Shown here piece by piece: positions 11,499-54,765 of a stretch of 64,000 nt of DNA. Below the pieces are notes generated by a model. It was given only the letters and a program-made list of their open reading frames with translations. It searched no databases and was not told the origin of the DNA. The stretch covers positions 3,040,001 through 3,104,000 of the forward strand of contig OY776562.1 of NCBI GenBank assembly GCA_963675785.1, in the 5' to 3' direction. Source of the stretch: Anaerolineae bacterium (GTDB taxonomy: Bacteria > Chloroflexota > Anaerolineae > UBA1429). A program made the translations under genes and the position numbers. The first letter of the stretch is position 1, and each line of letters starts with the position of its first letter.

Positions 11499-11560
11499 GT
11501 TTGCCTCCGGTCAACGTGATTCACTGCACTTATAACATGCGCATGCTTCTAAAGCAATCT

Positions 11561-35530: not shown

Positions 35531-35641
35531 CTCTCATCTTCCAGTCGTAAAAACGACTGCCGGAATTGGCACCTTGGGTAACGGAACGTACAGGTTGCCG
35601 AGGCTTCACAGGGCCGGTCCCTCTGCCTCTCTGGATAAGAG
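35531..35641 (-). ncRNA. SAM-I (S-box) riboswitch
   Basis: Minus strand CTCTTATCCAGAGAGGCAGAGGGACCGGCCCTGTGAAGCCTCGGCAACC...AAGGTGCCAATTCC...GGAAGATGAGAG, canonical S-box consensus, upstream of met genes. Confidence 0.97.
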
Positions 35642-35822: not shown

Positions 35823-35895
35823 GCCGACGTAGCTCAATCGGCAGAGCAGCGGTTTTGTAAACCGCAGGTTGTGGGTTCAATTCCCCCCGTCGGCT
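35823..35895 (+). tRNA. tRNA-Thr(UGU)
   Basis: Cloverleaf, acceptor GCCGACG/CGTCGGC, anticodon loop TT-TGT-AA, T-loop TTCAATT. Confidence 0.95.
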
Positions 35896-35956
35896 CTGGA
35901 ACCCATAGCGGTTCTACCAACTGCTGTCGGGCGTCTGGTTCAGGCGGCTAAAATGT

Positions 35957-36038
35957 GGGCAGGTACCCTAGCGGCCAAAGGGGACTGACTGTAAATCAGT
36001 TGGCTACGCCTTCGGAGGTTCGAATCCTTCCCTGCCCA
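35957..36038 (+). tRNA. tRNA-Tyr(GUA)
   Basis: GGGCAGG/CCTGCCC acceptor, CT-GTA-AA loop, long variable arm, TTCGAAT. Confidence 0.95.
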
Positions 36039-36078
36039 CCTTTGTCTGTAGGCCATGTTTTGCAGTGGCCTGGCAGGT

Positions 36079-36154
36079 GCCCACGTAGCTCAGTCGGTAG
36101 AGCACGTTCTTGGTAAGAACGGGGTCACAGGTTCAAATCCCGTCGTGGGCTCCA
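36079..36154 (+). tRNA. tRNA-Thr(GGU)
   Basis: GCCCACG/CGTGGGC acceptor, TT-GGT-AA loop, encoded CCA. Confidence 0.95.
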
Positions 36155-37622: not shown

Positions 37623-37695
37623 AGGCGAGTAGCTCAATTGGCAGAGCAACGGTCTCCAAAACCGTAGGTTGCGGGTTCGATTCCTGCCTCGCCTG
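37623..37695 (+). tRNA. tRNA-Trp(CCA)
   Basis: AGGCGAG/CTCGCCT acceptor, CT-CCA-AA loop; canonical position before secE. Confidence 0.95.
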
Positions 37696-41151: not shown

Positions 41152-41225
41152 TGGGCAGGATAGGACTCGAACCTACGGCCTCCACGATGTCAACGTGGCG
41201 CTCTAACCAGCTGGGCTACCTGCCC
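41152..41225 (-). tRNA. tRNA-Val(GAC)
   Basis: Minus strand GGGCAGG..CCACG-TTGACAT-CGTGG..GTAGGTTCGAGTCCTAT-CCTGCCC-A; TTGCAA-N16-TATAAT promoter upstream. Confidence 0.93.
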
Positions 41226-41339
41226 CCACTGAGGCTATTATACGGGATTCCGGCTTCCTTGCAAGTTATGCACTGACGGGTTGCTTTTCGCTGAGACGGT
41301 GATATGCTCTGCCCAGTATTGGGCTCAAGGAGATTGATA

Positions 41340-43349
41340 ATGTCTGAGAAATGCGAACGCGAACCGCTTCAGCTTCCTGAATCGTGGGACCCTGAAGCCA
41401 AACTATGTGCCAACTATACCGAATACGGCACGTTTCACGAATCGCGGCAAGGGGCTTCTCTAGCCGAGGCTTTGGTGGCCAATGGCACTGCGCAGGATAT
41501 CGCTCTGGCCCACGAGGTGCTCGAAGCGACCCTGATTTGCCAAGAGATGGATCCACGCGATCCTCACTATGGCAATTTCTACTGGATGGCTGAGGATACG
41601 GTAGTATTTGACCTCAATGCCGTCGAGTTTTGCCTTGAACACCTGATCCCAATGATGATTGAACATCGCGCTAGGCTGCAGCCATCTATGCAGGCACGTG
41701 TGCTGGAAGCGATACGTTTGGGATTGGATGAGATTCGTCGTCTTGATGTTCTGGTCGCCTATACCAATATTACTGCTTTGGACATTCTGAACACGTGTTT
41801 GGGCGGAGAACTACTGGGCGATGTAGAGATTGCCCAACGTGGCTATGCCAAACTGCAAGAGTTTATTGCTTTCAATGACCAAGGTGGCATACCGGCCGAA
41901 TACAATAGCCCCACGTATACGCGCGTAGCTCTAAAGTCCATGATGGGGCTGATATCTCTGGCGAAAGACAGTGCCACGCGTACTCGGGCCCATGCCCAGT
42001 TGTTGCGCTTGGCCGTAAGCGCCGGACTGCATTTGCATGAGGGTACTGGCCGCTGGGCTGCGCCGCACAGCCGTGCCTATCAGCCCTCGGTGGAATGCCG
42101 CGAGGCGCCAGAAGTTGAGCTGTTCGATGCCTGGATTGAAAAGGGCGATTTGCCGGTATGGTGTCGCGCTCTGTGGCAGGGCAATTCAGTGCCTCACGAA
42201 ATCTGGGAGAGCGTGGATTCTCGTGTAGGTGTAGGCCTGTCGACTTGTATGGATAAGACCTTTGCCCTGGGTGTAGGTTCTTTGGGCGAGGGCGGCCAGG
42301 CGGATTCTTGCATGGTTCACTATAGGCGAGAAAAACCTTGTGATGGAGTCTTGTACACGCGCTATCTGATCAATGATAAATGGCTTGGTGACACCTACCA
42401 TCCCACAGACCGCACCAAGTCGAGAAACCTTGCCGACGAGGGGATGTTCTACGGTGTGCAGAGCACGAACAAAGCTTTGGGTTTGTATCGGCCCCAGCAT
42501 GTTTCTGAGTGTAGTAGTGCCAAGGTCGCGCTCATTTGGACGCGTATTGAGGGTATTGACGAGATACGGGTGAATGGTGAGCTGGTGACGGCGCTTCCTT
42601 ATAACGTTCCCGAAAATAGCGTGGTTGGAATCGCTGCTGGAGAGACATATATGGCAGTTCGCCCTCTGTCTTGCACGGCTATGGGTCGCGAGACACCCGT
42701 GCGCTTGGTCGATATCAAGGGCGATCTGGTGCTCGAGATGTACAACTACAAGGGAGAAAGCAAGCGCTTTTGGGAATTGGGTTGGCCCGGGGCATTTTTC
42801 AAAGGACACCCAACCTGCGGCTTTTATCTTGAGGTCGGCAATTCTTCAGATTGTGCTGATCTGGCGGCTTTCTGCGAAATTGTGGCCAGTGGGCACGTGA
42901 CAGACACTATCGATGAACCCTTCACCTATGCAGGCGATCGACCGCGTGTGCGCACACTCGCTTACGAGCGAGAGGGCAAATCTTTTGGCATGAAGGTGGA
43001 CGTGATGGCCTGGCAGCAACTTTCACGTTGGATTGGTGACACCGAGTTGGGTATGCCCATGTTGGAATCACCCTATGCCCGACAGAATCGAGAGGGCTAT
43101 GTAGCCGTAGCAGATGCATCGTTGACATGCGCTGCTGCGCCAGCTTGGCTAGCAGCATTCCCTGAAAAGGGCATCTGGGCGGCAGGTGTCCACAATCAAA
43201 CCCCTTGTGAATTGACGCTGGAAACATCAGTCGGCCGTGTTCATGTTGCCCAATTTGCCATGGGCACCATCGAATGGGTTGATGGACAGGTATCCATCAA
43301 CGCGCTCGTGGCTGAGGGTATCAAAGTCACAGGGGCCAATCTGGCTTAA
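41340..43349 (+). CDS. Uncharacterised ~670 aa cytoplasmic protein (helical N-half, beta-rich C-half)
   Basis: Long ORF with AAGGAG RBS; motifs DLNAVEF, YTNI..LGGE, EYNSPTY, APHSRAY; family not identified with certainty. Confidence 0.7.
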   Translation: MSEKCEREPLQLPESWDPEAKLCANYTEYGTFHESRQGASLAEALVANGTAQDIALAHEVLEATLICQEMDPRDPHYGNFYWMAEDTVVFDLNAVEFCLEHLIPMMIEHRARLQPSMQARVLEAIRLGLDEIRRLDVLVAYTNITALDILNTCLGGELLGDVEIAQRGYAKLQEFIAFNDQGGIPAEYNSPTYTRVALKSMMGLISLAKDSATRTRAHAQLLRLAVSAGLHLHEGTGRWAAPHSRAYQPSVECREAPEVELFDAWIEKGDLPVWCRALWQGNSVPHEIWESVDSRVGVGLSTCMDKTFALGVGSLGEGGQADSCMVHYRREKPCDGVLYTRYLINDKWLGDTYHPTDRTKSRNLADEGMFYGVQSTNKALGLYRPQHVSECSSAKVALIWTRIEGIDEIRVNGELVTALPYNVPENSVVGIAAGETYMAVRPLSCTAMGRETPVRLVDIKGDLVLEMYNYKGESKRFWELGWPGAFFKGHPTCGFYLEVGNSSDCADLAAFCEIVASGHVTDTIDEPFTYAGDRPRVRTLAYEREGKSFGMKVDVMAWQQLSRWIGDTELGMPMLESPYARQNREGYVAVADASLTCAAAPAWLAAFPEKGIWAAGVHNQTPCELTLETSVGRVHVAQFAMGTIEWVDGQVSINALVAEGIKVTGANLA

Positions 43350-43400
43350 CAGGTAGGTACTTTGGGATATGCTTCACATACCCCTGGGGTGTTCCTCTTT

Positions 43401-43429
43401 TTGCAGTGCACTTGTGCGGGATGTATAAT
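43401..43429 (+). promoter_or_regulatory. Putative sigma70 promoter of the AOR-Hdr-Flx operon
   Basis: TTGCAG-N17-TATAAT. Confidence 0.6.
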
Positions 43430-43467
43430 CTCTGCTTAGAGGGGTTGAACCGTTAAAATACAAGAGT

Positions 43468-43710
43468 GGAGACCCAATCTCCGATATGGAACAAGTTTGT
43501 ACAGCTGGCTCTGGAGGGCTTCTGGCAAAGGCGCAGACCCTCAAAGTGTCGCATAGCTGTTCATCGCATATTGCGGCATCCGATTTTCTTGTGAGCTGTA
43601 CAGATACTTTGTTCCAAAAAGCACATTTGGCATTCATTCAAAATGGAATAGTACTATTCGAACGGACCATTGCGGACTGTACCAGGGAAAGCATGGTCCG
43701 TTCTGCATTT
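43468..43710 (+). other. Highly structured 5' leader (candidate cis-regulatory RNA)
   Basis: Long imperfect inverted repeat 43487-43506/43594-43616 enclosing two hairpins; 14-bp palindrome 43646-43659; 11-bp stem 43660-43670/43693-43703. Confidence 0.45.
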
Positions 43711-43729
43711 TTCAAGGGGGAAGATGCTC

Positions 43730-45607
43730 ATGTATTCCTATAGCGGCAGAGTTCTACATGTCGATGTTGGCACGCGTACTTCATGGGTGGAGCAGCTCGA
43801 TGAATCGCTCCTTAAAAAGCTGCTGGGAGGCGTGGGTTTGGCCACCTGGTTGGTTTACAAAAACACGCCCGCTGGTTGTGACCCGCTTGGCCCGGATAAC
43901 GCGCTCTGTTTTGCCTGTAGTGTGTTTGCTGGCACTACTATGCCGGTAGGCACCAAACATGCGGTGGCCAGCAAGTCACCCTTGACGGGTGTCATTGGCG
44001 ATTCGCTCTCTGGCAGCCACTTTTCTGAGGAGCTGCGCCGCGCCGGGTGGGATGGTATTGTCATCAAGGGGCAGGCGCCCGACTGGACCCTTTTGTTCAT
44101 TGATGATGACGATGTTCGCTTTCTCGAAGCTGGTGATTTGGTTGGCATGGGCTGTATGGGCACACAGCAGCGCGTGCGCGACTTGTTCGGCGATGAGAAC
44201 GTACGGGTGAGTTCCATCGGGCCGGCCGGCGAGAATTTGGTGCGTTTTGCTTCGATTGACAATGACGGCCGCCAAGTGGGTCGCACGGGCAATGGCACGG
44301 TGATGGGTAGCAAAAAGATCAAAGCCATTGCTTTGCGAGGCTCCAAGCCTGTCAGCGTGGCTGATCCCAAAGGTTTGCTGGCAGAGACCAAACGGCTCAT
44401 CCAAGTGGCACAAGGCCCGGGCACGTTCAAGTATCGTACGTTAGGTACCCCCGCCAACGTGCTGAATATGAACAAGATCGGCGTACTGCCCACACGAAAC
44501 TTTTCCGAGACGATTTTTGAACACGCCAACGAGATCAGTGGTGAATTCCTCCGCGACCATCTGTTGGTCAAAGAAGTGGCCTGTTCGGGCTGCCCTATCG
44601 CCTGTGAGCATTGGGCCGAGATCAAAGAGGGCCCCTACAAAGGCTCGATGATCGGTGTGGATTACGAACCCCTCTTCTCGCTGGGTTCCAACTGCGGCAT
44701 TGGCGATTTTGGCCCCATTGTGCACCTCATCGAAATGTGCGATGACCTGGGCATGGACGCCATGAGCGCCGGTGTGGTCATTAGTTGGGCTATGGAAGCT
44801 TTTGAACGGGGTGTATTTACTACCGAGGACACTGGCGGCTTGGAACTAAACTTTGGCAACGATGTGGCCGCCGTGGAAATTCTCAGACAAATTGCTTACC
44901 GTGAGGGATTGGGCGATCTATTGGCTGAGGGCGTCAAGCGCGCTTCAGAGCATACGGGCAAGGGCAGTGAGCACTATGCCATGCACATCAAGGGGCTAGA
45001 GATGCCTGGTTACGATGTGCGCAGCCTAAAGACCTTTGCCATGGGCCTGGCTGTGGGCACCCGCGGTGGCTGCCACAATCGCTCTCTGGCTTACGAGGCG
45101 GACATCAAGGGAGAGGTCGACCGTTTTACGGCGGATTCGAGCCGTGGCGCTATTGCCCGCGATAAAGAGAACTTTGCAGCCATCCTCGATTCGCTGGTTT
45201 TGTGCAAGTTCATCCGTAATGCCTTTGATGACTTTTACGAGGATGTGGCCCGCCTCTACAACATGGTCACAGGCCTTGATCTAACGGCGGCAGAGCTCAA
45301 GGCAGTAGGGGAGCGGGTTTGGAATCTGAAAAAGGCCTTTAACATTCGTGAGGGTTGGACGCGCGCTGACGACTGGCTGCCCGATCGTGTGCTCATGGAT
45401 CCGGTTCCTGATGGGCCATCCAAGGGCTCTTTTGTGACGGCGGACGAGCTCAATATGATGATCGATTCGTACTATGTGGCTCGTGGATGGACACCGGAAG
45501 GCTTGATCCCCCGCGAGAAACTGATTGAGTTGGGCCTTGGGGACATAGCCGACGACATTTGCCCAAGTTTGGTGGTAGCACCGGAACCTGCGGTCAAGGA
45601 GGCCTAG
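43730..45607 (+). CDS. Tungsten-dependent aldehyde:ferredoxin oxidoreductase (WOR/AOR family)
   Basis: KSPLTG, SIGPAGEN, VMGSKKIKA, CSGCPIAC + LVLCKF cluster ligands, DYE, DDLGMD, RGGCH. Confidence 0.95.
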   Translation: MYSYSGRVLHVDVGTRTSWVEQLDESLLKKLLGGVGLATWLVYKNTPAGCDPLGPDNALCFACSVFAGTTMPVGTKHAVASKSPLTGVIGDSLSGSHFSEELRRAGWDGIVIKGQAPDWTLLFIDDDDVRFLEAGDLVGMGCMGTQQRVRDLFGDENVRVSSIGPAGENLVRFASIDNDGRQVGRTGNGTVMGSKKIKAIALRGSKPVSVADPKGLLAETKRLIQVAQGPGTFKYRTLGTPANVLNMNKIGVLPTRNFSETIFEHANEISGEFLRDHLLVKEVACSGCPIACEHWAEIKEGPYKGSMIGVDYEPLFSLGSNCGIGDFGPIVHLIEMCDDLGMDAMSAGVVISWAMEAFERGVFTTEDTGGLELNFGNDVAAVEILRQIAYREGLGDLLAEGVKRASEHTGKGSEHYAMHIKGLEMPGYDVRSLKTFAMGLAVGTRGGCHNRSLAYEADIKGEVDRFTADSSRGAIARDKENFAAILDSLVLCKFIRNAFDDFYEDVARLYNMVTGLDLTAAELKAVGERVWNLKKAFNIREGWTRADDWLPDRVLMDPVPDGPSKGSFVTADELNMMIDSYYVARGWTPEGLIPREKLIELGLGDIADDICPSLVVAPEPAVKEA

Positions 45608-45609
45608 CC

Positions 45610-46125
45610 GTGGCAGTAACCCAGTATCAGCATATTATTTGTGACCCCGACAAGTGTATCGGCTGCAGGTTGTGTGAGTATGCTTGTTCAGCTACCAAGA
45701 CCAACGCTTTTGATGCGCCCATGTCACGCATTCGGGTGGTGCGCATTGAGCCCATTACCATGATTGCCATAAGCTGCCGGCTCTGTGCGGATGCTCCCTG
45801 CATTATCGCCTGCCCGCGGAACGCCTTGACGCGTTCTTCTGAGAACGGCACTATCATTGTGGATGTTGACAAGTGCGATGGTTGCGGGTGGTGCATTGAG
45901 GCCTGCGATTTCGGCGCCATGCTCCTCGACCCGGCTACAAAGACGGCGGCTGTGTGCGATTTGTGTGCCGATCAACCCGATGGCCCGCAGTGCGTGGCCT
46001 TTTGCCCCAAAGAAGCGCTGGTATTAGGCACGCCGGAGACGCTTCGCCAGCAGGCTCGGCGTGATGTGGTAAAGAAACTGTTTGATGAACTATCGACTGA
46101 TGGCCCACAGCAGGAGAAGCGATAG
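45610..46125 (+). CDS. 4Fe-4S dicluster electron-transfer subunit (AorA/CooF/HydN-like)
   Basis: CIGCRLCEYAC, CRLCADAPCIIACP, CDGCGWCIEAC, CDLC..PQCVAFCP; GTG start after AAGGAGG. Confidence 0.9.
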   Translation: MAVTQYQHIICDPDKCIGCRLCEYACSATKTNAFDAPMSRIRVVRIEPITMIAISCRLCADAPCIIACPRNALTRSSENGTIIVDVDKCDGCGWCIEACDFGAMLLDPATKTAAVCDLCADQPDGPQCVAFCPKEALVLGTPETLRQQARRDVVKKLFDELSTDGPQQEKR

Positions 46126-46128
46126 CGA

Positions 46129-48588
46129 ATGGAAGAACAGATCCGAGTTGGGGTGTATGTTTGCAGTTGTGGTTCAAACATCGGAAGTGTGGTCGACCCC
46201 AAGGTGTTGGCCGAATACGCCAGCGCGTTGCCCGATGTGGTGCTCACCCGTGATAACCTGTACATGTGCGGTGAGCCGGGTCAGAAAATGGTGCAAAAGG
46301 ACATTGTCGAGCACAACCTGAATCGCGTGGTGATTGCGGCCTGCAGTGTGCGCATGCACGAGCCTACTTTTAGGGCTTGCGTGGCCAAGGCGGGGCTCAA
46401 CCCCTTCCTTATGGAGATGGCCAACATCCGCGAGCAGGACACCTGGGTGCACGGCCACGATCATGAGGGAGCCCTGGCCAAGGCCAAGGACCTGATTGCG
46501 GCGGCAGTGGCCAAGGTACGCTATGCCCACCCGCTGCAAACCATCACCGTGCCAGTAACCAAGGCCGCGCTCGTGGTGGGCGGCGGTGTTGCAGGTATTA
46601 GTTCGGCGCTAGACCTCGCCGATATGGGGATCAAGACCTATCTGTTGGAAAGGGAGCTGAGCATTGGCGGCAAGATGGCTCAGCTGAACAAGACCTTTCC
46701 AACGATGGATTGCTCCATTTGAATACTTGCACCAAAGATGGTTGACGCGGCGCGTCACCCCAACATTGAAATACTGAGCTATTCGGAACTACTACGACTT
46801 GACGGCTATATCGGCAATTTCCGCGCCGAGATCGTCCGCAAGCCGCGCTATGTCATTGCGTCCAACTGCACCGGCTGTGGCGAGTGTGCTGAGGCCTGCC
46901 CCATTGAGGTGCCCAACGCCTTTGATGTGGATATTGCCCCGCGCAAAGCCATAGATGTGCCCCATGCCCAGGCGGTGCCGCTCATCTATGCCATTGATAT
47001 GGATAACTGTATCCAGTGCTATCAATGTGTAACGGCCTGTGGCGAGCGTGATGCCATTGATTTCTCTCAGGAACCCGAAATCATCAATCTCGATGTCGGT
47101 GCCATTGTCACTGCTACGGGGTTTGACGTCTTTGATCCACAAGTGATTCCCGAATACGGCTATAGCCACTATCCCAACGTCATCACGGCGATGGAATTGG
47201 AACGACTAGCCAACTCGGCGGGGCCCACGATTGGTCGCCTGGTGCGCCCTTCGGACGGCAAACCACCCGAGAGCCTGGCGTTGGTTCTCTGCGTTGGCTC
47301 GCGTGACAAGCGCTATAACGAATATTGCTCGGGCTTTTGCTGCATGTATTCCATCAAGAACGCCATTCTGCTCAAACAAGCCAACCCCGAGATGGACATC
47401 ACCATCTTTTACATGGATATCCGTACGCCTTCTAAAGGATATGAAGAGTTTTACAATCGCGCCCGAGCTGCTGGCATTCGCTTTGTGCGCGGTCGGCCGG
47501 CTCAGATCACCGAAGATCCCACCACACATAACCTGTTTATTGAGGCCGAGGATCAGGAATTGGGCGAGGTCATTGAACTGGAGACCGAAATGGCCGTTTT
47601 AGCTTCGGCAGCCATTCCATCCGAAGGCACTGATGAGCTAGCTTCTCAACTGACCCTTTCGCGCAGCCCCAGTGGCTTTTTCATGGAGTATCACCCCAAG
47701 CTGCGTCCGGTCGATTCGCCCACGGATGGCATCTTTTTGGCGGGCGCGGCCCAAGGGCCCAAGGACATTCCCGCCAGTGTGGCTCAGGCCAGCGCTGCAG
47801 CCTCACGTGCAGCACGGGTACTTTCTTCAGCTACCTGGGAGATCGAGCCCATCATTGCCGAGGTTGACCCCAAGGTGTGCATCAGCGCCCAGGGCAAAAA
47901 GTGTGGCATTTGCGCTACGGCCTGTCCTTACGGTGCTATCATCGTTGAGCCTGGCCAACCTGCGGTAGTTACCCAAGCCAAATGTCATGGCTGTGGTGGC
48001 TGTGTGGCTGAATGCCCGCACAATGCCATCACCCAGCATCACTTTACCGATCCGCAATTGGCGGCAGAGTTGGAAGCACTGCTCGATGACAAACCAGAAG
48101 AGAAAATTCTGGTGTTCATGTGCAACTGGTGTAGCTATGGCGGTGCTGATAACGCCGGCAGCAGCCACTTTGAATACACTTCGGCTTCACGAGGCCTGCG
48201 GGTGATGTGTTCGGCGCGTATGGATCAGGACTTTATTCTGGAGGCTTTCCGCCGAGGCGCTGGCATGGTACTGGTTTCGGGTTGCCACCCGCAAGACTGC
48301 CACTATATCACTGGCCAGCAAGTAGCGGCCCAGCGTTTTGATCGTATTCCGCGTACACTGGAGCGCGCTGGCATCAACCCCGAGCGTTTCAGAGTGGAGT
48401 GGATTTCGGCGGCCGAGGGCGAAAAGTATGCCCGTGTGCTCAATGAGATGCAGGTCAAACTGGATTCGCTTGACCCCGAGGTGCTGCGGGAAGAGAATCG
48501 TACGGCTGAGCCTTCGTTAACCTCGCGGCTCAAGCGCTGGAAGTTGGTGCCCGAGATGGCCGCTATTCTAGAGGCGACCAAATCATGA
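46129..48588 (+). CDS. hdrA: HdrA-MvhD fusion, selenoprotein (UGA at codon 198, 46720-46722); 819 aa
   Basis: ORFs 46129-46722 and 46738-48588 are in frame across a single TGA in KTFPTMDCSI-U-ILAPKM; GGGVAG FAD motif, CVGSRD..YCSGFCCMYSIK, two ferredoxin domains, C-terminal MvhD (CNWCSY, CSAR, GCHPQDCHY). Confidence 0.9.
46739..46760 (+). promoter_or_regulatory. Bacterial SECIS-like hairpin
   Basis: GG-(T bulge)-TGACGC-GGC-GCGTCA-CC; apical loop starts with G about 27 nt after the UGA. Confidence 0.65.
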
Positions 48589-49568
48589 TCAAATCGACCG
48601 CCTTTGATAAATCGTTTCCCAAAGAGGTGATGGCTGAGCCGGGCGGCGAGCAGTTGGTGGTTTGCTCGTCGTGCGGCACTTGCGCGGCGGCCTGTGTGGT
48701 GCGTCAGCAAAACCCTGAATACAACCCGCGGCGCATACTGCGTATGGCGGCGCTGGGGTTACGGGAGAAGGTACTTTCCTCCGAAGAGATTTGGCAATGC
48801 TCGGCTTGCGATGATTGTTATCCTCGCTGCCCCAAGGGTATCCATATCTCGGAAGTGATGGGTGCCATCCGGCAGATTGCCATTCGCGAGGGCTATACAC
48901 GGCCCGGCGCGACGGCCCAGGTGAACGTGAACCGCTGCGTGGCCTGTGGCATGTGTGCGGCGGCCTGCCCCTATGAAGCTATCAAACTGGAAGAAATCAT
49001 GATTCGCCGGTCACCCAAGCGAGTAGCCCAAGTAGACCCGAACCTTTGCGCGGGGTGTGGTATTTGCAACGCCGTGTGTCCCTCTGGCTCGATCTCGCTG
49101 GAGGGTTATACAGACCGTGAAGTACACGACGTGCTGTTGGAGGCCATGCCGCCCGATTGGTCGGGTCGGTTGCTGGTCATCATTTGCAATTGGAGCCTCC
49201 ACGCCGGTTCTGATATCACCTTTGCCGAAAACCCTCCCGAGGGTGTGCAGGTCATTCGTGTATCCTGTTCGGGACGAGTGACGCCCACCTTTGTGACTAC
49301 TGCTTTCGACCGTGGCGCTGAGGGCGTGTTAGTGGTGGGTTGCGACGAGGAAGAATGCCATTATCGTGAGGGCAGCCGCATCGCCAGCGGTCGGCTTCAG
49401 GTGTTGGGCTCACTGTTGGACATGATGGGCGTGGATGCCGCGCGCGTGCGCTTTACACGGCTTACCTCGCTGGACCGTGGCAAGTTGCCGACCATGGCGC
49501 AAGAGCAGCAAGCGCAACTGTCCGAATTAGGGCCGTTGGATTGGAAGGGTACCGGGGGGCGCTCATGA
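48585..49568 (+). CDS. HdrC-like + 2x[4Fe-4S] ferredoxin + MvhD/FlxD-like fusion
   Basis: CSSCGTCAAAC..IWQCSACDDCYPRCPKGI (HdrC); CVACGMCAAACP, CAGCGICNAVCP; ICNWS..SCSGRV..GCDEEECHY (MvhD). Confidence 0.85.
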   Translation: MIKSTAFDKSFPKEVMAEPGGEQLVVCSSCGTCAAACVVRQQNPEYNPRRILRMAALGLREKVLSSEEIWQCSACDDCYPRCPKGIHISEVMGAIRQIAIREGYTRPGATAQVNVNRCVACGMCAAACPYEAIKLEEIMIRRSPKRVAQVDPNLCAGCGICNAVCPSGSISLEGYTDREVHDVLLEAMPPDWSGRLLVIICNWSLHAGSDITFAENPPEGVQVIRVSCSGRVTPTFVTTAFDRGAEGVLVVGCDEEECHYREGSRIASGRLQVLGSLLDMMGVDAARVRFTRLTSLDRGKLPTMAQEQQAQLSELGPLDWKGTGGRS

Positions 49569-50440
49569 GCGATCGTGGAAATCATCAGGATGCCATGCGC
49601 GCTGCCCAGACATTGGCTGAGATGCAACCCCTGCTGCGCGAAACGGCCCATCACTTGTTGAGCGAGGGACAGGTTCATGGTGTGTTGGGCTTTTGTGAGA
49701 CGGTCACGCCCGGTGTGGTGACGCCTTGTCTCCTTCGCCAACCCAGCGAATGCCAAAAGCTGGTGCTGAATACGGCTTGCTATCACAATCTGGCAGGCTA
49801 TTTGGTGGGCCCCGATGGTCTGCTCAAGGGCGCCCGTGCCGAGCGTAACGCGCCACTAGCTATCGTGGCTAGGCCAGGGGTATTGCGCACGCTGGTGGTG
49901 TTGCTGCAAGAGCAACAGATTGTGCGTGAGGACATTGTCGTGTTGGGCATTACCGACAACACGCCCATTGGCTTAAAGCCAGACGTGCTCTTGGGCGAAC
50001 TCGATCGCGATTTTGTGGGCGGCTCGCAACACGAGGAATTGATTGCTCGCCTGCAGGCCATGAGTACAGCGGAGCGAGCGGCTTGGTGGAACGCTCGCTT
50101 TGCCCAGTGTGTGCGCTGCTATGCCTGCCGACAGGTTTGCCCGCTCTGCTATTGCGAACAGTGTGTGGTGGATGAAAACCTGCCCCAGTGGATCGACAAG
50201 AGCGACTCGGTGGCCTCTAATCGCACCTTTTTGCTGGTGCGGGCCATGCACCTCATGGGGCGCTGCGTGAACTGTGGCGCTTGTGAGGCGGCCTGTCCCA
50301 TGCATTTGCCTTTGGGAGTGTTGACCACGTTGTTGGGCAAAGAGGTACAAACAACTCTGGCCTTTGTGCCGGGTTCGGATGGGACGCAGGCGCCGGCTGC
50401 TCTGGGCTGCCGCATTGTTGCTGGTCGCGGAGAGGAATAG
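49565..50440 (+). CDS. FlxC-like iron-sulfur protein
   Basis: FrhB/FdhB-like N-terminus (LLSEGQVHGVLGF..CYHNLAGYL); CVRCYACRQVCPLCYCEQC; RAMHLMGRCVNCGACEAACP. Confidence 0.8.
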   Translation: MSDRGNHQDAMRAAQTLAEMQPLLRETAHHLLSEGQVHGVLGFCETVTPGVVTPCLLRQPSECQKLVLNTACYHNLAGYLVGPDGLLKGARAERNAPLAIVARPGVLRTLVVLLQEQQIVREDIVVLGITDNTPIGLKPDVLLGELDRDFVGGSQHEELIARLQAMSTAERAAWWNARFAQCVRCYACRQVCPLCYCEQCVVDENLPQWIDKSDSVASNRTFLLVRAMHLMGRCVNCGACEAACPMHLPLGVLTTLLGKEVQTTLAFVPGSDGTQAPAALGCRIVAGRGEE

Positions 50441-50442
50441 CC

Positions 50443-51492
50443 ATGGCGAACAAAATGCTGCGTCTTGCCGATGTCCCTGCCTTGGTAGAGGCAATGTTGG
50501 CCGAGGCCATCGTCGTTGGGCCTTCGTTGAGCGAGCAGCTTTCTGATGAGGCGCCGGCGGCGCTCTATAACGAAATCCATGCGCCACACGACCTGTGGTT
50601 GGATTCTGGTCGCCCGGCCAAGAGCCTCAAAGAGTTCTTTTTCCCGCCACGAGAGGTATTGTTCACCTATCGCCTTAGCGAGACAGGCGTTGAGGTGACT
50701 GAGCCCGAGCTAGAGACCAGGCCGCGCATTGTCTTTGGCGCCCGTCCCTGCGATGCCGCCGCTTTGCCGGTGATGGATCAGGTGTTCGGTTGGGGTGAAC
50801 AAGATAACACCTATTTTTATCGGCGGGAGCATACTACCATTGTTACCGTGGCCTGTGATGCCCCTGAGAACACCTGCTTTTGCACCTCCTTGGGTGGCTC
50901 GCCCACGGGTACGGCTGGCGCTGATGTGCTGCTGACGCGCCTTGGCGATGTGTACCATGTGAGTGTCCTTTCGGACAAGGGTGCCCAACTGGTTGCTGCC
51001 TACCCTGATTATTTCAGGGAGGCGAGCCCAGCACTGGATCTGGCCCAAGAAGACACTGCGCGAGCGCTAGAAGAGCAAATCGTGCGCAAGATTGATCCTG
51101 CGCCCATTCGCGATATCGCCTTTGACGACCCGCTCTGGCAGGAGCTGACTCAGCAGTGTGTGGATTGCGGGGTGTGCACCTTCCTTTGCCCCACTTGCCA
51201 TTGTTTCGATATACAGGATGAGGGCAACGAGGCCGAGGGCCAACGTGTGCGCCTGTGGGATTCCTGCGCTTTTCGTGATTTCACGCGTATGACAGTAGCT
51301 CAGCCACGCCCAGAGCATTACCGGCGCTATCGACAGCGTATTATGCACAAGTTCCAATACTATCCCACCAATTTCGATGCCGCCTTGTGCGTGGGCTGTG
51401 GCCGTTGCGTGGCCTCTTGCCCGGCTGGGGTAGATATTACCGAGATCATCTCGCGGTTGGGCGCAAGCCTGGCAGCGCGTGAAGGAGAATAG
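50443..51492 (+). CDS. FlxB-like (AsrA/HydB family) iron-sulfur protein
   Basis: SLKEFFFP, FGARPCD, CFCTSLG, CVDCGVCTFLCPTCHCF, RLWDSC, HKF, CVGCGRCVASCP. Confidence 0.88.
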   Translation: MANKMLRLADVPALVEAMLAEAIVVGPSLSEQLSDEAPAALYNEIHAPHDLWLDSGRPAKSLKEFFFPPREVLFTYRLSETGVEVTEPELETRPRIVFGARPCDAAALPVMDQVFGWGEQDNTYFYRREHTTIVTVACDAPENTCFCTSLGGSPTGTAGADVLLTRLGDVYHVSVLSDKGAQLVAAYPDYFREASPALDLAQEDTARALEEQIVRKIDPAPIRDIAFDDPLWQELTQQCVDCGVCTFLCPTCHCFDIQDEGNEAEGQRVRLWDSCAFRDFTRMTVAQPRPEHYRRYRQRIMHKFQYYPTNFDAALCVGCGRCVASCPAGVDITEIISRLGASLAAREGE

Positions 51493-51501
51493 GCGCTCAT
51501 C

Positions 51502-52344
51502 ATGCACGATCATGGCACACTCACACCTACAGTGATGACGGTTCAGCGCATTGTCGAAGAGACGCCCGATGTCAAAACCTTTCGACTGGCTCCGGTGGAT
51601 GTTGCGGATGGTAGCTGGCGCCACGCTTTTGATTCGGGCCAGTTTGGCCTGTTCTCGGTGTTTGGCCAGGGTGAGGCGCCCTTTGGGCTGGCCAGCTCGC
51701 CAACCCAAGTAGGCTATATCGAATGCTCTATCAAACGCCAGGGCAAGGTCACCGATGCCTTTCATGCGCTGGCTGAGGGTGACCAGGTGGGTTATCGCGG
51801 TCCCTATGGTCGGGGGTTTCCCTATGATGAACTGGTGCGCAAGAATGTGGTCTTTGTGGGGGGTGGCATTGGCTTGGCGCCCTTGCGTTCTCTCATCTGG
51901 AATTGCCTCGACAATCGCGCCGATTTCGGTGATTTGATCGTGGTTTACGGCGCACGTAGCACTGGCGATCTGGTGTACAAGCGCGAACTTGATCAGTGGT
52001 TGGCTCGTTCCGATATGCAAACGGTGTTAACGGTTGACCCCGGTGGACAGGATGAAGCCTGGCGTGGGAATGTTGGCTTTGTGCCTGCCGTTCTTGAAGA
52101 GGTTGCGCCTACGGTCGAGAATACCTTGGTGGTGACTTGCGGGCCGCCCATTATGATCAAATTTGTGGTGCAATCGCTGCTCAAGCTGGGCTTTGCGCCC
52201 GAGCAGATTATCACCAGCCTGGAAATGAAAATGAAATGCGGCATCGGCAAGTGCGGCCGCTGCAACATTGGGCATTTGTACGTCTGCAAGGATGGTCCCG
52301 TGTTTAGCTATGCTGAACTCAAGGATCTGCCGGACGAGTATTAG
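51502..52344 (+). CDS. FlxA-like (AsrB/HydG family) FAD/NAD-binding [2Fe-2S] oxidoreductase
   Basis: GQF...GEAP, RGPYGRGF, GGGIGLAP, YGARS, CGPPIM, MKCGIGKCGRC..CKDGPVF. Confidence 0.92.
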   Translation: MHDHGTLTPTVMTVQRIVEETPDVKTFRLAPVDVADGSWRHAFDSGQFGLFSVFGQGEAPFGLASSPTQVGYIECSIKRQGKVTDAFHALAEGDQVGYRGPYGRGFPYDELVRKNVVFVGGGIGLAPLRSLIWNCLDNRADFGDLIVVYGARSTGDLVYKRELDQWLARSDMQTVLTVDPGGQDEAWRGNVGFVPAVLEEVAPTVENTLVVTCGPPIMIKFVVQSLLKLGFAPEQIITSLEMKMKCGIGKCGRCNIGHLYVCKDGPVFSYAELKDLPDEY

Positions 52345-52365
52345 GCTGCTTGGAGAGGGATATCA

Positions 52366-53265
52366 ATGAGTCGAGGAACGACACTCAAAACGAGTAATGC
52401 GGCCTATACTGAATTGCTTCGTCCTATGATCACTCGCCGCTACAGTCTGATCATCGATCATGAGCTCTGTTGCGGCTGCGATACCTGCGAGATCGTCTGT
52501 CCGCGCAAAGCCATCTCGCTTTCAGCGGCGGTGGTCGAGAATGGGCATGTGGTCGTCAAGGCCCGGGTCGAGCTGGATGAAACCAAATGCAGTTTTTGTG
52601 GTGAGTGCGCTGCGATTTGCCCAACCTGCGCCTTTCGCCTTACAGTAAATGGCGAGCCAGAGAATCCAGTGCTCAAGGCCAGCGTGTGGCCGCTCTTTCG
52701 CAAGCGCGTCAGCATAGATCAGGGCATTCTCTCTGAACATCTCGATGTGGACTATATCGAGCTTTGCCCGTCGGGAGCTATCTCGGCGGATGTGGAATGT
52801 GATGCCTCGGGTACTGTGACGGCGGTCAGCGATGTGCAGATCGACCGGCAGAGCTGCTTCAACTGCACGCGCTGCATGTTCAAGGGGCCAGAGGGTGGTT
52901 TCACCATCGAAAAGCCTTATGAGGGGCGCATCTTTTTGAAGGCAACCTTATGCCCTGAAGGCTGCCAGGCTTGTTCAGAGGTTTGCCCCAGCCATGCGCT
53001 CTATCTCCGTGATGGCGTGGTGGCGTTGGAAGCGCAATTCTGTATTTACTGCAAGGCCTGCACGCGTGTTTGCCCGGCTGAGGGTGCGCTGGAGGTTCGC
53101 CGCACCGGCTATCGCCATATGCCCATCGAATCGGGGGCTTGGCGTGTGGCGCTGGAAAAGCTGGTAGATATTCAGGCTGTCAAGCGCGAGTTGGGCCAAA
53201 AGACGCAGCAAAAAAGGCGCCAGGCTGTGGCCCAGCGCTTGCTTGGTGAAATGAAAGAAGAATAG
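52366..53265 (+). CDS. FwdF-like polyferredoxin
   Basis: Motifs CCGCDTCEIVCP, CSFCGECAAICP..LTVNGE, ELCP, CFNCTRC, EKPYEGRI, CPEGCQACSEVCP, CIYCKACTRVCP. Confidence 0.75.
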   Translation: MSRGTTLKTSNAAYTELLRPMITRRYSLIIDHELCCGCDTCEIVCPRKAISLSAAVVENGHVVVKARVELDETKCSFCGECAAICPTCAFRLTVNGEPENPVLKASVWPLFRKRVSIDQGILSEHLDVDYIELCPSGAISADVECDASGTVTAVSDVQIDRQSCFNCTRCMFKGPEGGFTIEKPYEGRIFLKATLCPEGCQACSEVCPSHALYLRDGVVALEAQFCIYCKACTRVCPAEGALEVRRTGYRHMPIESGAWRVALEKLVDIQAVKRELGQKTQQKRRQAVAQRLLGEMKEE

Positions 53266-53277
53266 AGGGCTGCTGAT

Positions 53278-54765
53278 TTGCCCAAGGCAAATGAACTCGT
53301 AAAAGCACTAGATTGCCAATTGCTGGATTGGCACGATCAGGATATTACGGGAGTGGTTTGCGATTCGCGCCAAGCGGCGCCAGGCGCTTTGTATGTAGCC
53401 TATGGCGGCGTGAGCGTGGATGGGCATACCTATGCTGCTGCTGCGCATCATGCCGGGGCAGTCGCTTTTGTGCTCGAGCACGACATGCCCGAACTGGTCG
53501 GCCAACCGCGAGCCATTGTGCGTAGCGGTCGTGAGGCCTTTGCCCTGCTACAGGCAGCCCTACATGGCTACCCGGGGCGCCACCTCAAAGTCATTGGTGT
53601 AACCGGCACGGACGGTAAGACGACGACCTCGCGCCTCATTGCCAGCATTTTGTCTGCTGCTGGCAAGCAGGTTGGCACAGTAGACACCGTGGGCGCAACT
53701 ATCGCCGGTAAGGAAACCCCCACTGGCTTTCACACCACAACTCCTGATGCCCCCGAACTGCAAGAGTATTTGGCGCAAATGGTGGTTGCTGGCGTCGAGT
53801 ATGCGGTCATCGAAACCACTTCGCACGGCCTGGCCCAGCACCGCGTTACCGGGTCGGAATACGATGTCGCCGTGATGACCAACATCACTCACGAGCATTT
53901 GGATTTTCACGGCACCTTTGAGAACTATCGCGACGCCAAGGCCATGCTCTTTCGCTCGCTTTCGACCTCGGCGCACAAAGAGGGTATTGCCAAAACGGCG
54001 GTGCTTAACCGCGACGATCCCTCGTACACCTATTTGGCGGCTTTTTCTGCAGAGCGGCAGTTTGCTTATGGCCTGGAACTGGGCGATGTGACTGCCTCGG
54101 ATATTCGTTGCGCAGTGGACGGGCTGGACTTTATCCTCAATCTGCCCGATGAGCAGATAGCCATTCATTCGCCGCTGGTGGGACGCTATAACATCAGCAA
54201 CATTCTGGCGGCAGCAACGGCTGCTTGGTCGTTGGAAATTCCTGGGGATGTTATTGCCAAGGGCGTGGCGGCGGTGGGGCATATCGAGGGGCGCTGGAAT
54301 GTGATCAATTGCGGCCAACCGTTTTCGGTAGTAGTGGATTTTGCCCACACGCCCAATGCGCTGCTTCAGGTCTTAACTACCGCCCGTGATCTCACCTCAG
54401 GGCGAGTTGCTGTGGTGTTTGGCTGCGCCGGTCTACGTGATAGGACCAAGCGCCCTGCCATGGGCAAGATAGCCAGCGATCTGGCCGATTTGGTGGTGCT
54501 GACAGCCGAGGACCCACGAACGGAATCCCTCGATGAGATCATCGAGCAGATTGCAGCCGGGTTTTCGAATCCTAACACCCTCTGCTGGCGCGAGCCCGAC
54601 AGGGCAAAAGCAATCGCCCGGGCCCTGGGATGGGCTAGACCGGGCGATCTTGTGATTGTGACAGGCAAAGGCCACGAACAATCGATGTGCTTTGGCACTG
54701 AGGAAACACCTTGGAGTGACAAAGAAACGGTCCTCAGCGCGCTTGCTTCATTGGGTTATTGCTAA
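53278..54765 (+). CDS. murE: UDP-MurNAc-L-Ala-D-Glu:diamino acid ligase
   Basis: DSR, GVTGTDGKTT, HTTTP, ETTSHG, TNITHEHLDFH, VDFAHTP, EDPR, GKGHE. Confidence 0.93.
   Translation: MPKANELVKALDCQLLDWHDQDITGVVCDSRQAAPGALYVAYGGVSVDGHTYAAAAHHAGAVAFVLEHDMPELVGQPRAIVRSGREAFALLQAALHGYPGRHLKVIGVTGTDGKTTTSRLIASILSAAGKQVGTVDTVGATIAGKETPTGFHTTTPDAPELQEYLAQMVVAGVEYAVIETTSHGLAQHRVTGSEYDVAVMTNITHEHLDFHGTFENYRDAKAMLFRSLSTSAHKEGIAKTAVLNRDDPSYTYLAAFSAERQFAYGLELGDVTASDIRCAVDGLDFILNLPDEQIAIHSPLVGRYNISNILAAATAAWSLEIPGDVIAKGVAAVGHIEGRWNVINCGQPFSVVVDFAHTPNALLQVLTTARDLTSGRVAVVFGCAGLRDRTKRPAMGKIASDLADLVVLTAEDPRTESLDEIIEQIAAGFSNPNTLCWREPDRAKAIARALGWARPGDLVIVTGKGHEQSMCFGTEETPWSDKETVLSALASLGYC

Follow-up and report, generated by a model that had tools for sequence, protein, structure and literature searches.

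An Anaerolineae operon encoding a candidate HdrA-centred aldehyde oxidoreductase complex with an exchangeable electron module and no HdrB

This study describes an eight-gene operon of an Anaerolineae bacterium (Chloroflexota; GenBank assembly GCA_963675785.1) in which the genes for a tungsten-type aldehyde oxidoreductase (AOR) and its small iron-sulfur subunit WorS stand directly in front of hdrA, the gene for a flavoprotein presumed to carry the bifurcating flavin adenine dinucleotide (FAD). The operon occupies positions 43730-53265 of a 64,000-nucleotide stretch of contig OY776562.1 (positions 3,040,001 to 3,104,000 of the forward strand), which we call the window and whose numbering is used throughout unless a contig or locus prefix is given. 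It probably lets cells exchange electrons among aldehydes, NAD(P)H and ferredoxin (Fd) without loss of energy, and we consider it likely that its eight proteins form one HdrA-centred complex. The explanation that we favour gives this complex three electron ports and no disulfide-reducing arm; taken as a whole, it falls just short of an even chance, and the exact wiring and reaction set out below are more tentative still. The features of the operon are as follows.

43730-45607, plus strand: AOR (WorL), 625 aa, with Pfam domains AFOR_N and AFOR_C
45610-46125, plus strand: WorS, the small subunit with four [4Fe-4S] clusters, 171 aa, GTG start
46129-48588, plus strand: HdrA::MvhD fusion (its MvhD part is called MvhD#1), a selenoprotein of 819 aa in the read-through translation of TGA
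46720-46722, plus strand: in-frame TGA, read as selenocysteine (Sec), U198 in the motif D-C-S-I-U of the read-through translation
48585-49568, plus strand: HdrC, two-cluster Fd and MvhD (called MvhD#2) in one protein of 327 aa (Pfam, NCBIfam)
49565 (ATG) or 49541 (TTG) to 50440, plus strand: FlxC-like iron-sulfur subunit (Pfam Fer4 families, motifs)
50443-51492, plus strand: FlxB-like subunit, sulfhydrogenase beta or AsrA type (Pfam Fer4_22, NCBIfam)
51502-52344, plus strand: FlxA-like FAD/NAD(P) subunit (Pfam NAD_binding_1, DHODB_Fe-S_bind)
52366-53265, plus strand: FmdF/FwdF-like polyferredoxin, 299 aa, with about six [4Fe-4S] sites

The gene count is based on the list of open reading frames together with Pfam and NCBIfam. 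The successive intergenic spacings are +2, +3, -4, -4 (or -28 with the TTG start), +2, +9 and +21 nt; the start of hdrC overlaps the stop of hdrA by 4 nt, and the FlxC-like ATG at 49565 overlaps the stop of HdrC. The tight packing of eight co-oriented genes with gaps of at most ~21 nt, as claimed in a preliminary description of this DNA, is borne out by these coordinates, and the subunit identities proposed there (AOR, HdrA-MvhD, HdrC-Fd-MvhD, FlxCBA and an FwdF-like protein) hold up against Pfam and NCBIfam. Its statement that the cluster contains no CCG-domain HdrB, hydrogenase or formate dehydrogenase (Fdh) also stands, as the two libraries find no CCG domain, hydrogenase or Fdh among the eight genes.

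The AOR scores 230.3 bits (E 2e-68) with AFOR_N and 429.3 bits (2e-128) with AFOR_C, well above the Pfam cut-offs of 29.8 and 27. Its best solved relatives are the AOR of P. furiosus (1aor, 3.6e-121, full length) and WorL (9mqx_D, 8.5e-105); an AorABC chain (8c0z_A) follows at 3.4e-98 in the Protein Data Bank sequence search, and BamB (4z3w_A) at 7e-53, covering residues 2-419 only. The alignment with 1aor conserves the CxxCxxxC motif and a later Cys, which we take to be the [4Fe-4S] ligands, and has Glu and His at the positions of E313 and H448, presumably the Glu/His pair of an aldehyde-type active site. Judged from these alignments, the catalytic subunit is of the aldehyde type rather than the BamB type. 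For WorS, the GTG at 45610, which lies 8 nt after AAGGAGG, was preferred over the longer open reading frame from 45559. The best solved matches of this subunit are WorS 9mqx_E (3.7e-25), WOR5-S 6x6u_B and AorA 8c0z_C (6.8e-17), and BamC 4z3w_E matches at 4e-8. Sixteen Cys residues are invariant across 56 WorS orthologues, as expected of the four-[4Fe-4S] small subunit of Class II tungsten oxidoreductases (WORs); the six additional subunits of the operon go beyond the Class II definition of WorL plus WorS.

Residues 3-654 of the HdrA protein align with residues 2-652 of 5odc_A (E 4e-250), so that the match spans the full-length domain set: the N-terminal, TrxR-like, inserted Fd and C-terminal Fd domains. 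The MvhD part follows at residues 657-789 (1e-34 to MvhD chains). The NCBIfam equivalog cut-offs were missed, at 1056.5 against 1100 for HdrA2 and at 660.9 against 1400 and 657.8 against 1300 for HdrA. The preliminary description had read the in-frame TGA as Sec and had called for a search for the sel genes. This reading is supported because TGA occupies the U198 codon in all 86 HdrA orthologues examined, each of which conserves Cys-x-x-Sec, and because the genome encodes tRNA-Sec, SelA and SelB. A hairpin after the TGA is not significant (z -0.96; 32 of 200 shuffles fold equally well).

In the fourth protein, residues 3-110 match HdrC 8rvv_C (2.5e-18) and represent the N-terminal, two-cluster portion of HdrC, residues 107-181 match the C-terminal Fd domain of HdrA, and residues 188-319 match MvhD 7bkb_F (3.6e-24); it bears four CxxCxxCxxxC motifs. 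The FlxC-like subunit carries two CxxCxxCxxxCP motifs, and its place in the gene order is conserved among Flx-type relatives. The FlxB-like and FlxA-like subunits are of the sulfhydrogenase beta/gamma (AsrA/AsrB) type, with NCBIfam matches to HydB (8e-45), ShyB (1e-43) and AsrA (2e-43) for the former and to NF006220 (2e-65), HydG (1e-57) and AsrB (2e-57) for the latter, each under its cut-off, which for the FlxB-like models is an equivalog cut-off. The FlxA-like protein, which has an FAD/NAD(P) domain and a C-terminal [2Fe-2S] site, would be the NAD(P)H port. The set of FlxABC plus FlxD (MvhD) beside hdrA is recognised here by domain content, the searched libraries holding no Flx-specific model. 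A profile built from 50 orthologues of the polyferredoxin matches FmdF 7bkb_K best (9e-58), together with 9sfi_T, FwdF 5t5i_F and 9sw6_H; these FmdF/FwdF chains range from 9e-58 to 6e-52, whereas MvhB 9sw6_G reaches just 2e-32. The NCBIfam FwdF model gives 121.5 bits against a cut-off of 375, with model positions 93-335 covered. By the profile matches, the analogy with FwdF drawn in the preliminary description is sound, the protein being a candidate member of that family.

The arrangement recurs widely. An even phylum sample and an even class sample, of 401 genomes each, were searched along with the species collection from which both were drawn, so that the counts overlap and are not additive. 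In the phylum sample, HdrA matches at E <= 1e-50 occur in 101 of 401 genomes. Of these, the six most similar (61-65% identity, one TGA each) all show the order AOR-WorS-HdrA-HdrC/Fd-MvhD-FlxC-FlxB-FlxA-polyferredoxin, with contig ends cutting two of them; the next 14 loci, whose HdrA is at most 51% identical, have no AOR close by. The scan of the species collection with an alignment of seven HdrA proteins gave 243 relatives, of which the best 80 (62-80% identity) were kept; the same scan with a single AOR protein as query returned no relative. AOR and WorS lie immediately 5' of HdrA in 77 of these best 80, and the other three have less than 710 nt of upstream sequence. The polyferredoxin gene is present in 61 of the 80 loci, and the remaining 19 stop short of its position. 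In the class sample, all 15 genomes from the family to which the window belongs gave an HdrC-Fd-MvhD match (13 full-length, one cut by a contig end and one weak and partial), and the type was counted by eye in ~54 genomes. The AOR adjoins in 15 of the 16 class-sample loci checked, the remaining one being contig-cut. An AOR-HdrA-HdrC-HdrB arrangement occurs in 0 of the best 80 loci, and 10 loci with short HdrC genes are other Hdr clusters that no AOR adjoins. The gene arrangement is more than chance, because the order recurs in 6 of 6 phylum-sample relatives and AOR plus WorS precede HdrA in 77 of 80 loci, and the conserved aor-hdrA synteny that the preliminary description had proposed to look for is thereby established.

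The best 80 are labelled Anaerolineae, Anaerolineales or Chloroflexota (some "uncultured bacterium"), except for one Desulfobacteraceae metagenome-assembled genome (L090). Its HdrA is 62% identical and its gene order is the same up to FlxC, which could reflect lateral transfer or a binning error. Several loci show further peculiarities. At L085:10001-12443 the HdrA match falls into two overlapping pieces, 10001-11299 and 11283-12443, which suggests a frameshift or an assembly error. A MoaD/ThiS-like open reading frame of ~97 aa with a Gly-Gly end lies just 5' of AOR on the same strand in 41 of 86 loci (for example L113:7104-7397); tblastn finds no homologue of it in the window. Toxin-antitoxin-like genes have been inserted twice, as a small nucleotidyltransferase between the hydrogenase subunit genes (L116:7540-7839) and as a nucleotidyltransferase with HEPN between hdrA and hdrC (L122:12495-13227).

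Among the 80 loci, the slot between HdrC-Fd-MvhD and the polyferredoxin has swapped contents, and its inserted genes were verified by Pfam. The small and large subunits of a [NiFe] hydrogenase (Mvh) fill this slot in 44 of the 80 loci, giving the order MvhD-MvhG-MvhA-polyferredoxin; FlxCBA, as in the window, fills it in 15. Four loci have a molybdopterin enzyme with an Fdh-like Sec motif, the gene carrying an in-frame TGA within ...HCARL_HAPT..., one has a hydrogenase followed by FlxC and FlxB, and one has no module. A further four hold a partial module at a contig end, and 11 give no information. In the locus that has no module (L107:3025-10232), the core AOR-WorS-HdrA-HdrC-Fd-MvhD is followed directly by the polyferredoxin, and hydrogenase, Flx and Fdh modules are absent. 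The locus with both kinds (L071:7520-17828, also L147) has the hydrogenase subunits and then FlxC and FlxB in one operon, with the contig ending inside FlxB; it resembles a complete sulfhydrogenase-type (alpha-delta-beta-gamma) set.

For a tree of 81 AORs, we excluded linked sequences that fell below 93% coverage or contained internal stops, and one unlinked sequence that also contained an internal stop. The 68 HdrA-linked AORs on this tree form a single clade (support 0.875), whose sister group consists of nine unlinked AORs from the same phylum (0.96; joint support 0.996); by parsimony, the module type changes at least 16 times. In a descriptive comparison, locus pairs that share a module were set against pairs whose modules differ, with core divergence matched through bins of WorS identity (closest bin 85-100%). 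Polyferredoxin identity is 78.9% whether the module is the same or different, and MvhD#1 identity is 87.8% and 88.7%, respectively, the other HdrA domains being similar. MvhD#2, by contrast, falls from 84% to 37% when the modules differ, and the HdrC-Fd part from 82% to 62%. The divergence of WorS and that of the polyferredoxin are correlated (r 0.93 over 1128 non-independent pairs). From this co-variation we conclude that AOR-WorS-HdrA::MvhD#1 and the polyferredoxin constitute the core and that (HdrC-Fd)-MvhD#2-module is an exchangeable cassette. A single polypeptide comprises both HdrC-Fd and MvhD#2 in all 44 Mvh-type loci, all 4 Fdh-type loci and 3 of the 18 Flx-type loci, the window included. 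These results refine the preliminary description. FlxCBA is present as the proposed link to NAD(H), but Flx is just one of three interchangeable modules, beside hydrogenase and the Fdh-like enzyme; and co-variation puts Flx on the HdrC-Fd-MvhD arm, not on HdrA's own MvhD.

The rest of the genome, a single contig (C1) of 3.22 Mb with 94.8% completeness, was searched by tblastn with the window proteins and for CCG domains. It has one full copy of HdrA, no paralogue of FlxB, FlxC or the polyferredoxin by tblastn, and two distant AOR paralogues (31-34% identity). The second AOR (C1:3210628-3212675, outside the window), 34% identical, is preceded by a WorS-like iron-sulfur gene of its own, and the third lies at C1:677309-679147. 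All CCG matches of the genome fall in one open frame (C1:3129113-3129754), ~40 kb downstream of the operon; the protein has 618 aa and, judged from its sequence, a hydrophobic N-terminal half, so that it looks membrane-bound. The CCG-domain search found no soluble HdrB in the 3.22 Mb, and DsrC was not found in the genome. With one HdrA, a sole CCG protein that is membrane-like and no DsrC, an ordinary Flx-HdrABC with a cognate HdrB, which would have counted against the preliminary description, is therefore unavailable here. Elsewhere the genome has three [NiFe]-hydrogenase-like loci and three iron alcohol dehydrogenases, and no [FeFe] hydrogenase was found in it.

In solved HdrA complexes, electrons enter at the flavin by way of MvhD and leave at high potential via HdrC and at low potential via the inserted Fd domain, where FmdF and MvhB dock and pass low-potential electrons to a pterin enzyme (PMC13580544, PMC12350162; here and below, papers and preprints cited by identifier stand for the accessible parts of their text). 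In the class II benzoyl-CoA reductase Bam, the inserted Fd domain of BamE feeds BamC-BamB (preprint 10.64898/2026.04.10.717634), and an HdrA::MvhD fusion has been found to take electrons from ferredoxin with no donor module (PMC5296606). On these models we propose a soluble complex with HdrA as its flavoprotein centre, three ports and no disulfide-reducing arm. The first port, modelled on Fmd/Fwd in methanogens, would join AOR and WorS through the FmdF-like polyferredoxin to the inserted Fd domain of HdrA, its low-potential exit; we place the polyferredoxin on this arm because it is FmdF-like and part of the constant core. The second would be the exchangeable module on the HdrC-Fd-MvhD#2 arm, where HdrB sits in canonical enzymes, with FlxCBA (NAD(P)H) as the partner here and a [NiFe] hydrogenase or a Sec-containing Fdh-like enzyme in relatives. 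This placement is chosen because MvhD#2, which we regard as the adaptor belonging to the module, is usually fused behind HdrC-Fd, which would give a continuous chain of clusters. At the third port, the core would trade electrons with a carrier at the ferredoxin level, for example via MvhD#1. The reaction would then be reversible and close to equilibrium: aldehyde + NAD(P)H + oxidised ferredoxin <-> acid + NAD(P)+ + reduced ferredoxin. Standard potentials are about -580 mV for acid/aldehyde, about -450 mV for ferredoxin and -320 to -430 mV for NAD(P)H, H2 and formate, and the branches of HdrA would follow this order, the low arm serving acid/aldehyde, the middle position ferredoxin, and the "high" arm NAD(P)H, H2 or formate.

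Several observations weigh against this three-port proposal. The nearest unlinked AORs (45-55% identity) are solitary or accompanied by WorS only, and this type of AOR is therefore not inherently HdrA-dependent. Of the 18 Flx-type loci, 15 have one gene for HdrC-Fd and another for MvhD#2. Because the locus pairs are phylogenetically non-independent, the means from the co-variation comparison serve as description only; the module-dependence of HdrC-Fd could be hitch-hiking, since most loci have this part fused to MvhD#2. No sequence feature marks the ferredoxin port. To our knowledge, the module bound through MvhD in characterised HdrA complexes is always a mid-potential donor to FAD and never the partner of the HdrC arm. 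Finally, the search for tup or wtp genes elsewhere in the genome, which had been suggested earlier, identified no tungstate transporter: WtpA has no match and none of three PBP_like_2 matches is recognisable as TupA, so that the metal may be either tungsten or molybdenum.

Other explanations have to be weighed against the same evidence. One of them, which we consider unlikely, is an HdrA-based analogue of WorABCSL, the bifurcating Class IV WOR. In it, aldehyde would be the sole donor, AOR-WorS would feed the flavin of HdrA via MvhD#1, and the electron pair would be split there, one electron passing to NAD(P)+ (H+ or CO2 in relatives) via HdrC-Fd-MvhD#2 and the other to ferredoxin via the inserted Fd domain and the polyferredoxin. 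Such an enzyme would employ all parts and the same three partners, in a type of reaction that has been measured for WorABCSL (PMC13328260, PMC12318220). It also suits MvhD#1 as a constant part of the core, the WorS gene adjoining hdrA, and a variable module that co-varies with the HdrC-Fd-MvhD#2 arm. However, the aldehyde couple lies below both acceptors at standard potentials, so that coupling would be unnecessary. Moreover, the inserted domain of HdrA can reduce ferredoxin without a polyferredoxin, and the polyferredoxin here is FmdF-like, FmdF being a bridge from HdrA to a pterin enzyme and not to free ferredoxin (PMC13580544).

We likewise think it improbable that the operon follows the logic of Bam and of the methanogen Mvh-Hdr-Fmd complexes, in which case NAD(P)H (H2 or formate in relatives) would be a mid-potential donor via MvhD, low-potential electrons would travel from the polyferredoxin by way of WorS to AOR, where a carboxylic acid would be reduced to the aldehyde, and high-potential electrons would exit via HdrC-Fd to an acceptor encoded elsewhere, such as an electron-transferring flavoprotein (ETF), a thiol protein or the membrane CCG protein. 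The donor modules, MvhD adaptor, HdrA, HdrC and FmdF-like polyferredoxin are indeed the set of the methanogen supercomplex (PMC13580544), and the ETF acceptor of class II benzoyl-CoA reductase is also outside the complex (preprint 10.64898/2026.04.10.717634). Yet a high-potential acceptor module occurs in none of the 80 loci, and the genome searches found neither a soluble HdrB nor DsrC. If NAD(P)H were the donor, an acceptor potential of about -60 mV or above would be required, and a strict fermenter presumably offers few acceptors of this kind. In addition, a fused HdrC-Fd-MvhD#2 would short-circuit the donor input with the high-potential exit.

A linear, non-bifurcating aldehyde:NAD(P)+ oxidoreductase, in which HdrA, HdrC and the polyferredoxin would merely relay electrons from AOR-WorS to FlxCBA much as WorN does, is very unlikely in our view. 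Aldehyde oxidation with NAD(P)+ is strongly exergonic and Class III WORs do link similar WorLS pairs to NAD+ (PMC13328260), but a methanogen-grade HdrA with its conserved Cys-x-x-Sec, two MvhD and a six-cluster polyferredoxin exceed the needs of a wire, and the module-free locus (L107) retains the core without the third module. That the operon simply houses two independent enzymes, a ferredoxin-dependent WorLS and a Flx-HdrA(C) oxidoreductase of the NAD(P)H:ferredoxin type, is most improbable: sister AORs do work without HdrA, and in Solidesulfovibrio Adh and Aor yield NADH and reduced ferredoxin and cooperate through these free carriers with a separate, confurcating hydrogenase that makes H2 from both (PMC10084766), but AOR and HdrA have stayed adjacent in 77 of 80 loci despite at least 16 module swaps, the linked AORs are one clade, WorS and polyferredoxin diverge in step (non-independent pairs), and the leftover Flx-HdrA-HdrC would still have no third port.

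As to the boundaries of the operon, murE starts 12 nt past the polyferredoxin gene. A promoter-like TTTGCA-18-TATAAT (43400-43429, plus strand; 10 of 12 matches) lies ~300 nt upstream of the AOR start; it is weak and not above chance, because shuffles predict 6.7 such sites where 7 are seen, and the terminator scan did no better than shuffles either. The 380-nt leader contains no riboswitch, and no Rfam family matches within 43300-43800. G+C is 56-58% in the cluster (44001-54000) against 51-54% in the flanks. Recent horizontal insertion, which this raised G+C had suggested, was rejected in view of flanking genes that are the same as in relatives: murE, ald and gatA are common to 23, 16 and 13 related loci, respectively. 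Directly upstream (41304-43349, plus strand) is the gene of a 681-aa protein without a Pfam or NCBIfam match; the genome encodes two remote paralogues of it, at 34% and 21% identity across ~220-270 residues. Farther off, the window contains an S-adenosylmethionine (SAM) riboswitch (35531-35641, minus strand, 95.5 bits) that precedes a gene of the cystathionine gamma-synthase / methionine gamma-lyase family and aspartate kinase; four tRNA genes at 35823-36151 and others at 37623-37695 (plus strand) and 41152-41225 (minus strand); and a homologue of the nickel-dependent lactate racemase LarA (15479-16765, plus strand; 459.5 bits against a cut-off of 460).

Bifurcation of the HdrA type has been described chiefly for methanogens, sulfate reducers and a benzene-ring reductase, and this operon, which recurs in at least 80 species-level genomes of Anaerolineae and Chloroflexota, unites HdrA with an aldehyde-type AOR. 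Such bacteria are common as fermenters in digesters and sediments. The exchange of its H2, formate and NAD(P)H modules amounts to a natural experiment. If the eight proteins are one enzyme, it would demonstrate HdrA function without HdrB, open a new route in anaerobic carbon flow that links organic acids and aldehydes with H2, formate or NAD(P)H, and give low-potential biocatalysis, for example acid reduction, a modular scaffold. The operon may possibly represent a further architectural class of tungsten oxidoreductase and the first HdrA system without any thiol/disulfide site, a reversible enzyme with ferredoxin in the middle of the bifurcation, carboxylate/aldehyde chemistry on the low-potential arm and a plug-in module on the HdrC arm, a conclusion that we would at present sooner doubt than assert. 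If it is true, the abundant fermenting Anaerolineae could convert aldehydes, pyridine nucleotides, H2 or formate, and ferredoxin into one another close to equilibrium. Full-text literature searches returned no description of an AOR-HdrA enzyme, a point that the preliminary description had left unconfirmed. The accessible text of the 2026 classification of tungsten oxidoreductases recognises five classes and names benzoyl-CoA reductase as the sole HdrA-related member (PMC13328260), and its supplementary text, as far as accessible, mentions neither HdrA, heterodisulfide, Anaerolinea nor Chloroflex. In the accessible parts of genome papers on Chloroflexi, Asgard and Actinobacteria, such an enzyme is likewise absent (PMC5736913, PMC7117926, PMC3971608, PMC11291895, PMC7325909, PMC11650866).

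Comparison with known systems shows how the operon recombines familiar modules. With the methanogen Mvh/Fdh-HdrABC-Fmd(Fwd) supercomplexes it shares HdrA, MvhD, the N-terminal part of HdrC and an FmdF-like polyferredoxin, and its hydrogenase-type relatives match the methanogen mvhDGAB order (PMC13580544). However, those supercomplexes have HdrB, heterodisulfide and formylmethanofuran dehydrogenase, whereas here AOR is the pterin enzyme and HdrB is absent; the HdrC protein has an extra Fd domain and a second MvhD, and the host belongs to a lineage of bacterial fermenters. An HdrB with two CCG domains, which HdrABC requires as the partner of HdrC, was not found. HdrA2B2C2 of Methanosarcina acetivorans likewise has an HdrA-MvhD fusion, and NCBIfam HdrA2 is the best model for our HdrA; it draws on ferredoxin or F420H2 without a hydrogenase (PMC5296606). 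Unlike the operon described here, it has HdrB2C2, reduces CoM-S-S-CoB, and has no AOR, Flx or polyferredoxin. AorABC of Aromatoleum aromaticum, a Class III WOR, has related WorL and WorS and is coupled to pyridine nucleotide, but a single FAD subunit, WorN, stands in place of the six further subunits and there is no bifurcation. FlxABCD-HdrABC of Desulfovibrio vulgaris has, as in the window, the FlxA/B/C NAD(P)H module and an MvhD-like FlxD beside hdrA and hdrC; the window differs in the reversed order (D-C-B-A) and in the addition of AOR, WorS and polyferredoxin, and the HdrB and DsrC-type acceptor of that system were not found in the genome. The Desulfovibrio complex was reportedly linked to ethanol and aldehyde metabolism by Ramos et al. 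in 2015.

Two further related systems are bifurcating tungstoenzymes. WorL and WorS of the Class IV enzyme WorABCSL (Acetomicrobium mobile, Eubacterium limosum) are closely related to those of the window, and WorABCSL couples aldehyde, NAD(P) and ferredoxin by flavin-based bifurcation (PMC12318220, PMC13328260). Its bifurcating module is of the BfuABC type (WorABC, with flavin mononucleotide), in contrast to HdrA (FAD), HdrC, MvhD and polyferredoxin here, and the NuoE/NuoF/HydB-type domains of the WorABC that defines Class IV (PMC13328260) occur in none of the eight genes by Pfam and NCBIfam. The suggestion that the operon encodes a machine differently built from WorABCSL is supported, as a candidate. 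The accompanying view that the known bifurcating tungstoenzyme works without HdrA had overlooked Bam[(BC)2DEFGHI]2 of Geobacter metallireducens, whose BamE is a fused HdrA dimer (preprint 10.64898/2026.04.10.717634). In Bam, as here, an AOR-family tungsten subunit (BamB) is paired with a WorS-like subunit (BamC), and an MvhD-like adaptor and selenocysteine are also present; the pair is fed by the inserted Fd domain of an HdrA-type bifurcating flavoprotein, as we propose for the window. The window differs in having a single canonical HdrA::MvhD, an aldehyde-type AOR (1aor 3.6e-121 against BamB 7e-53) in place of a BamB-type catalytic subunit, and neither BamD (CCG) nor BamGHI (Bfu), which places it outside Bam. 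Relative to Bam, it adds HdrC-Fd-MvhD and the FmdF-like polyferredoxin, and its input module is Flx, Mvh or Fdh. The operon thus falls outside the definitions of Class IV, Bam, HdrABC and Flx-HdrABC because each time a required subunit is absent, while by its predicted proteins it shares modules with all four.

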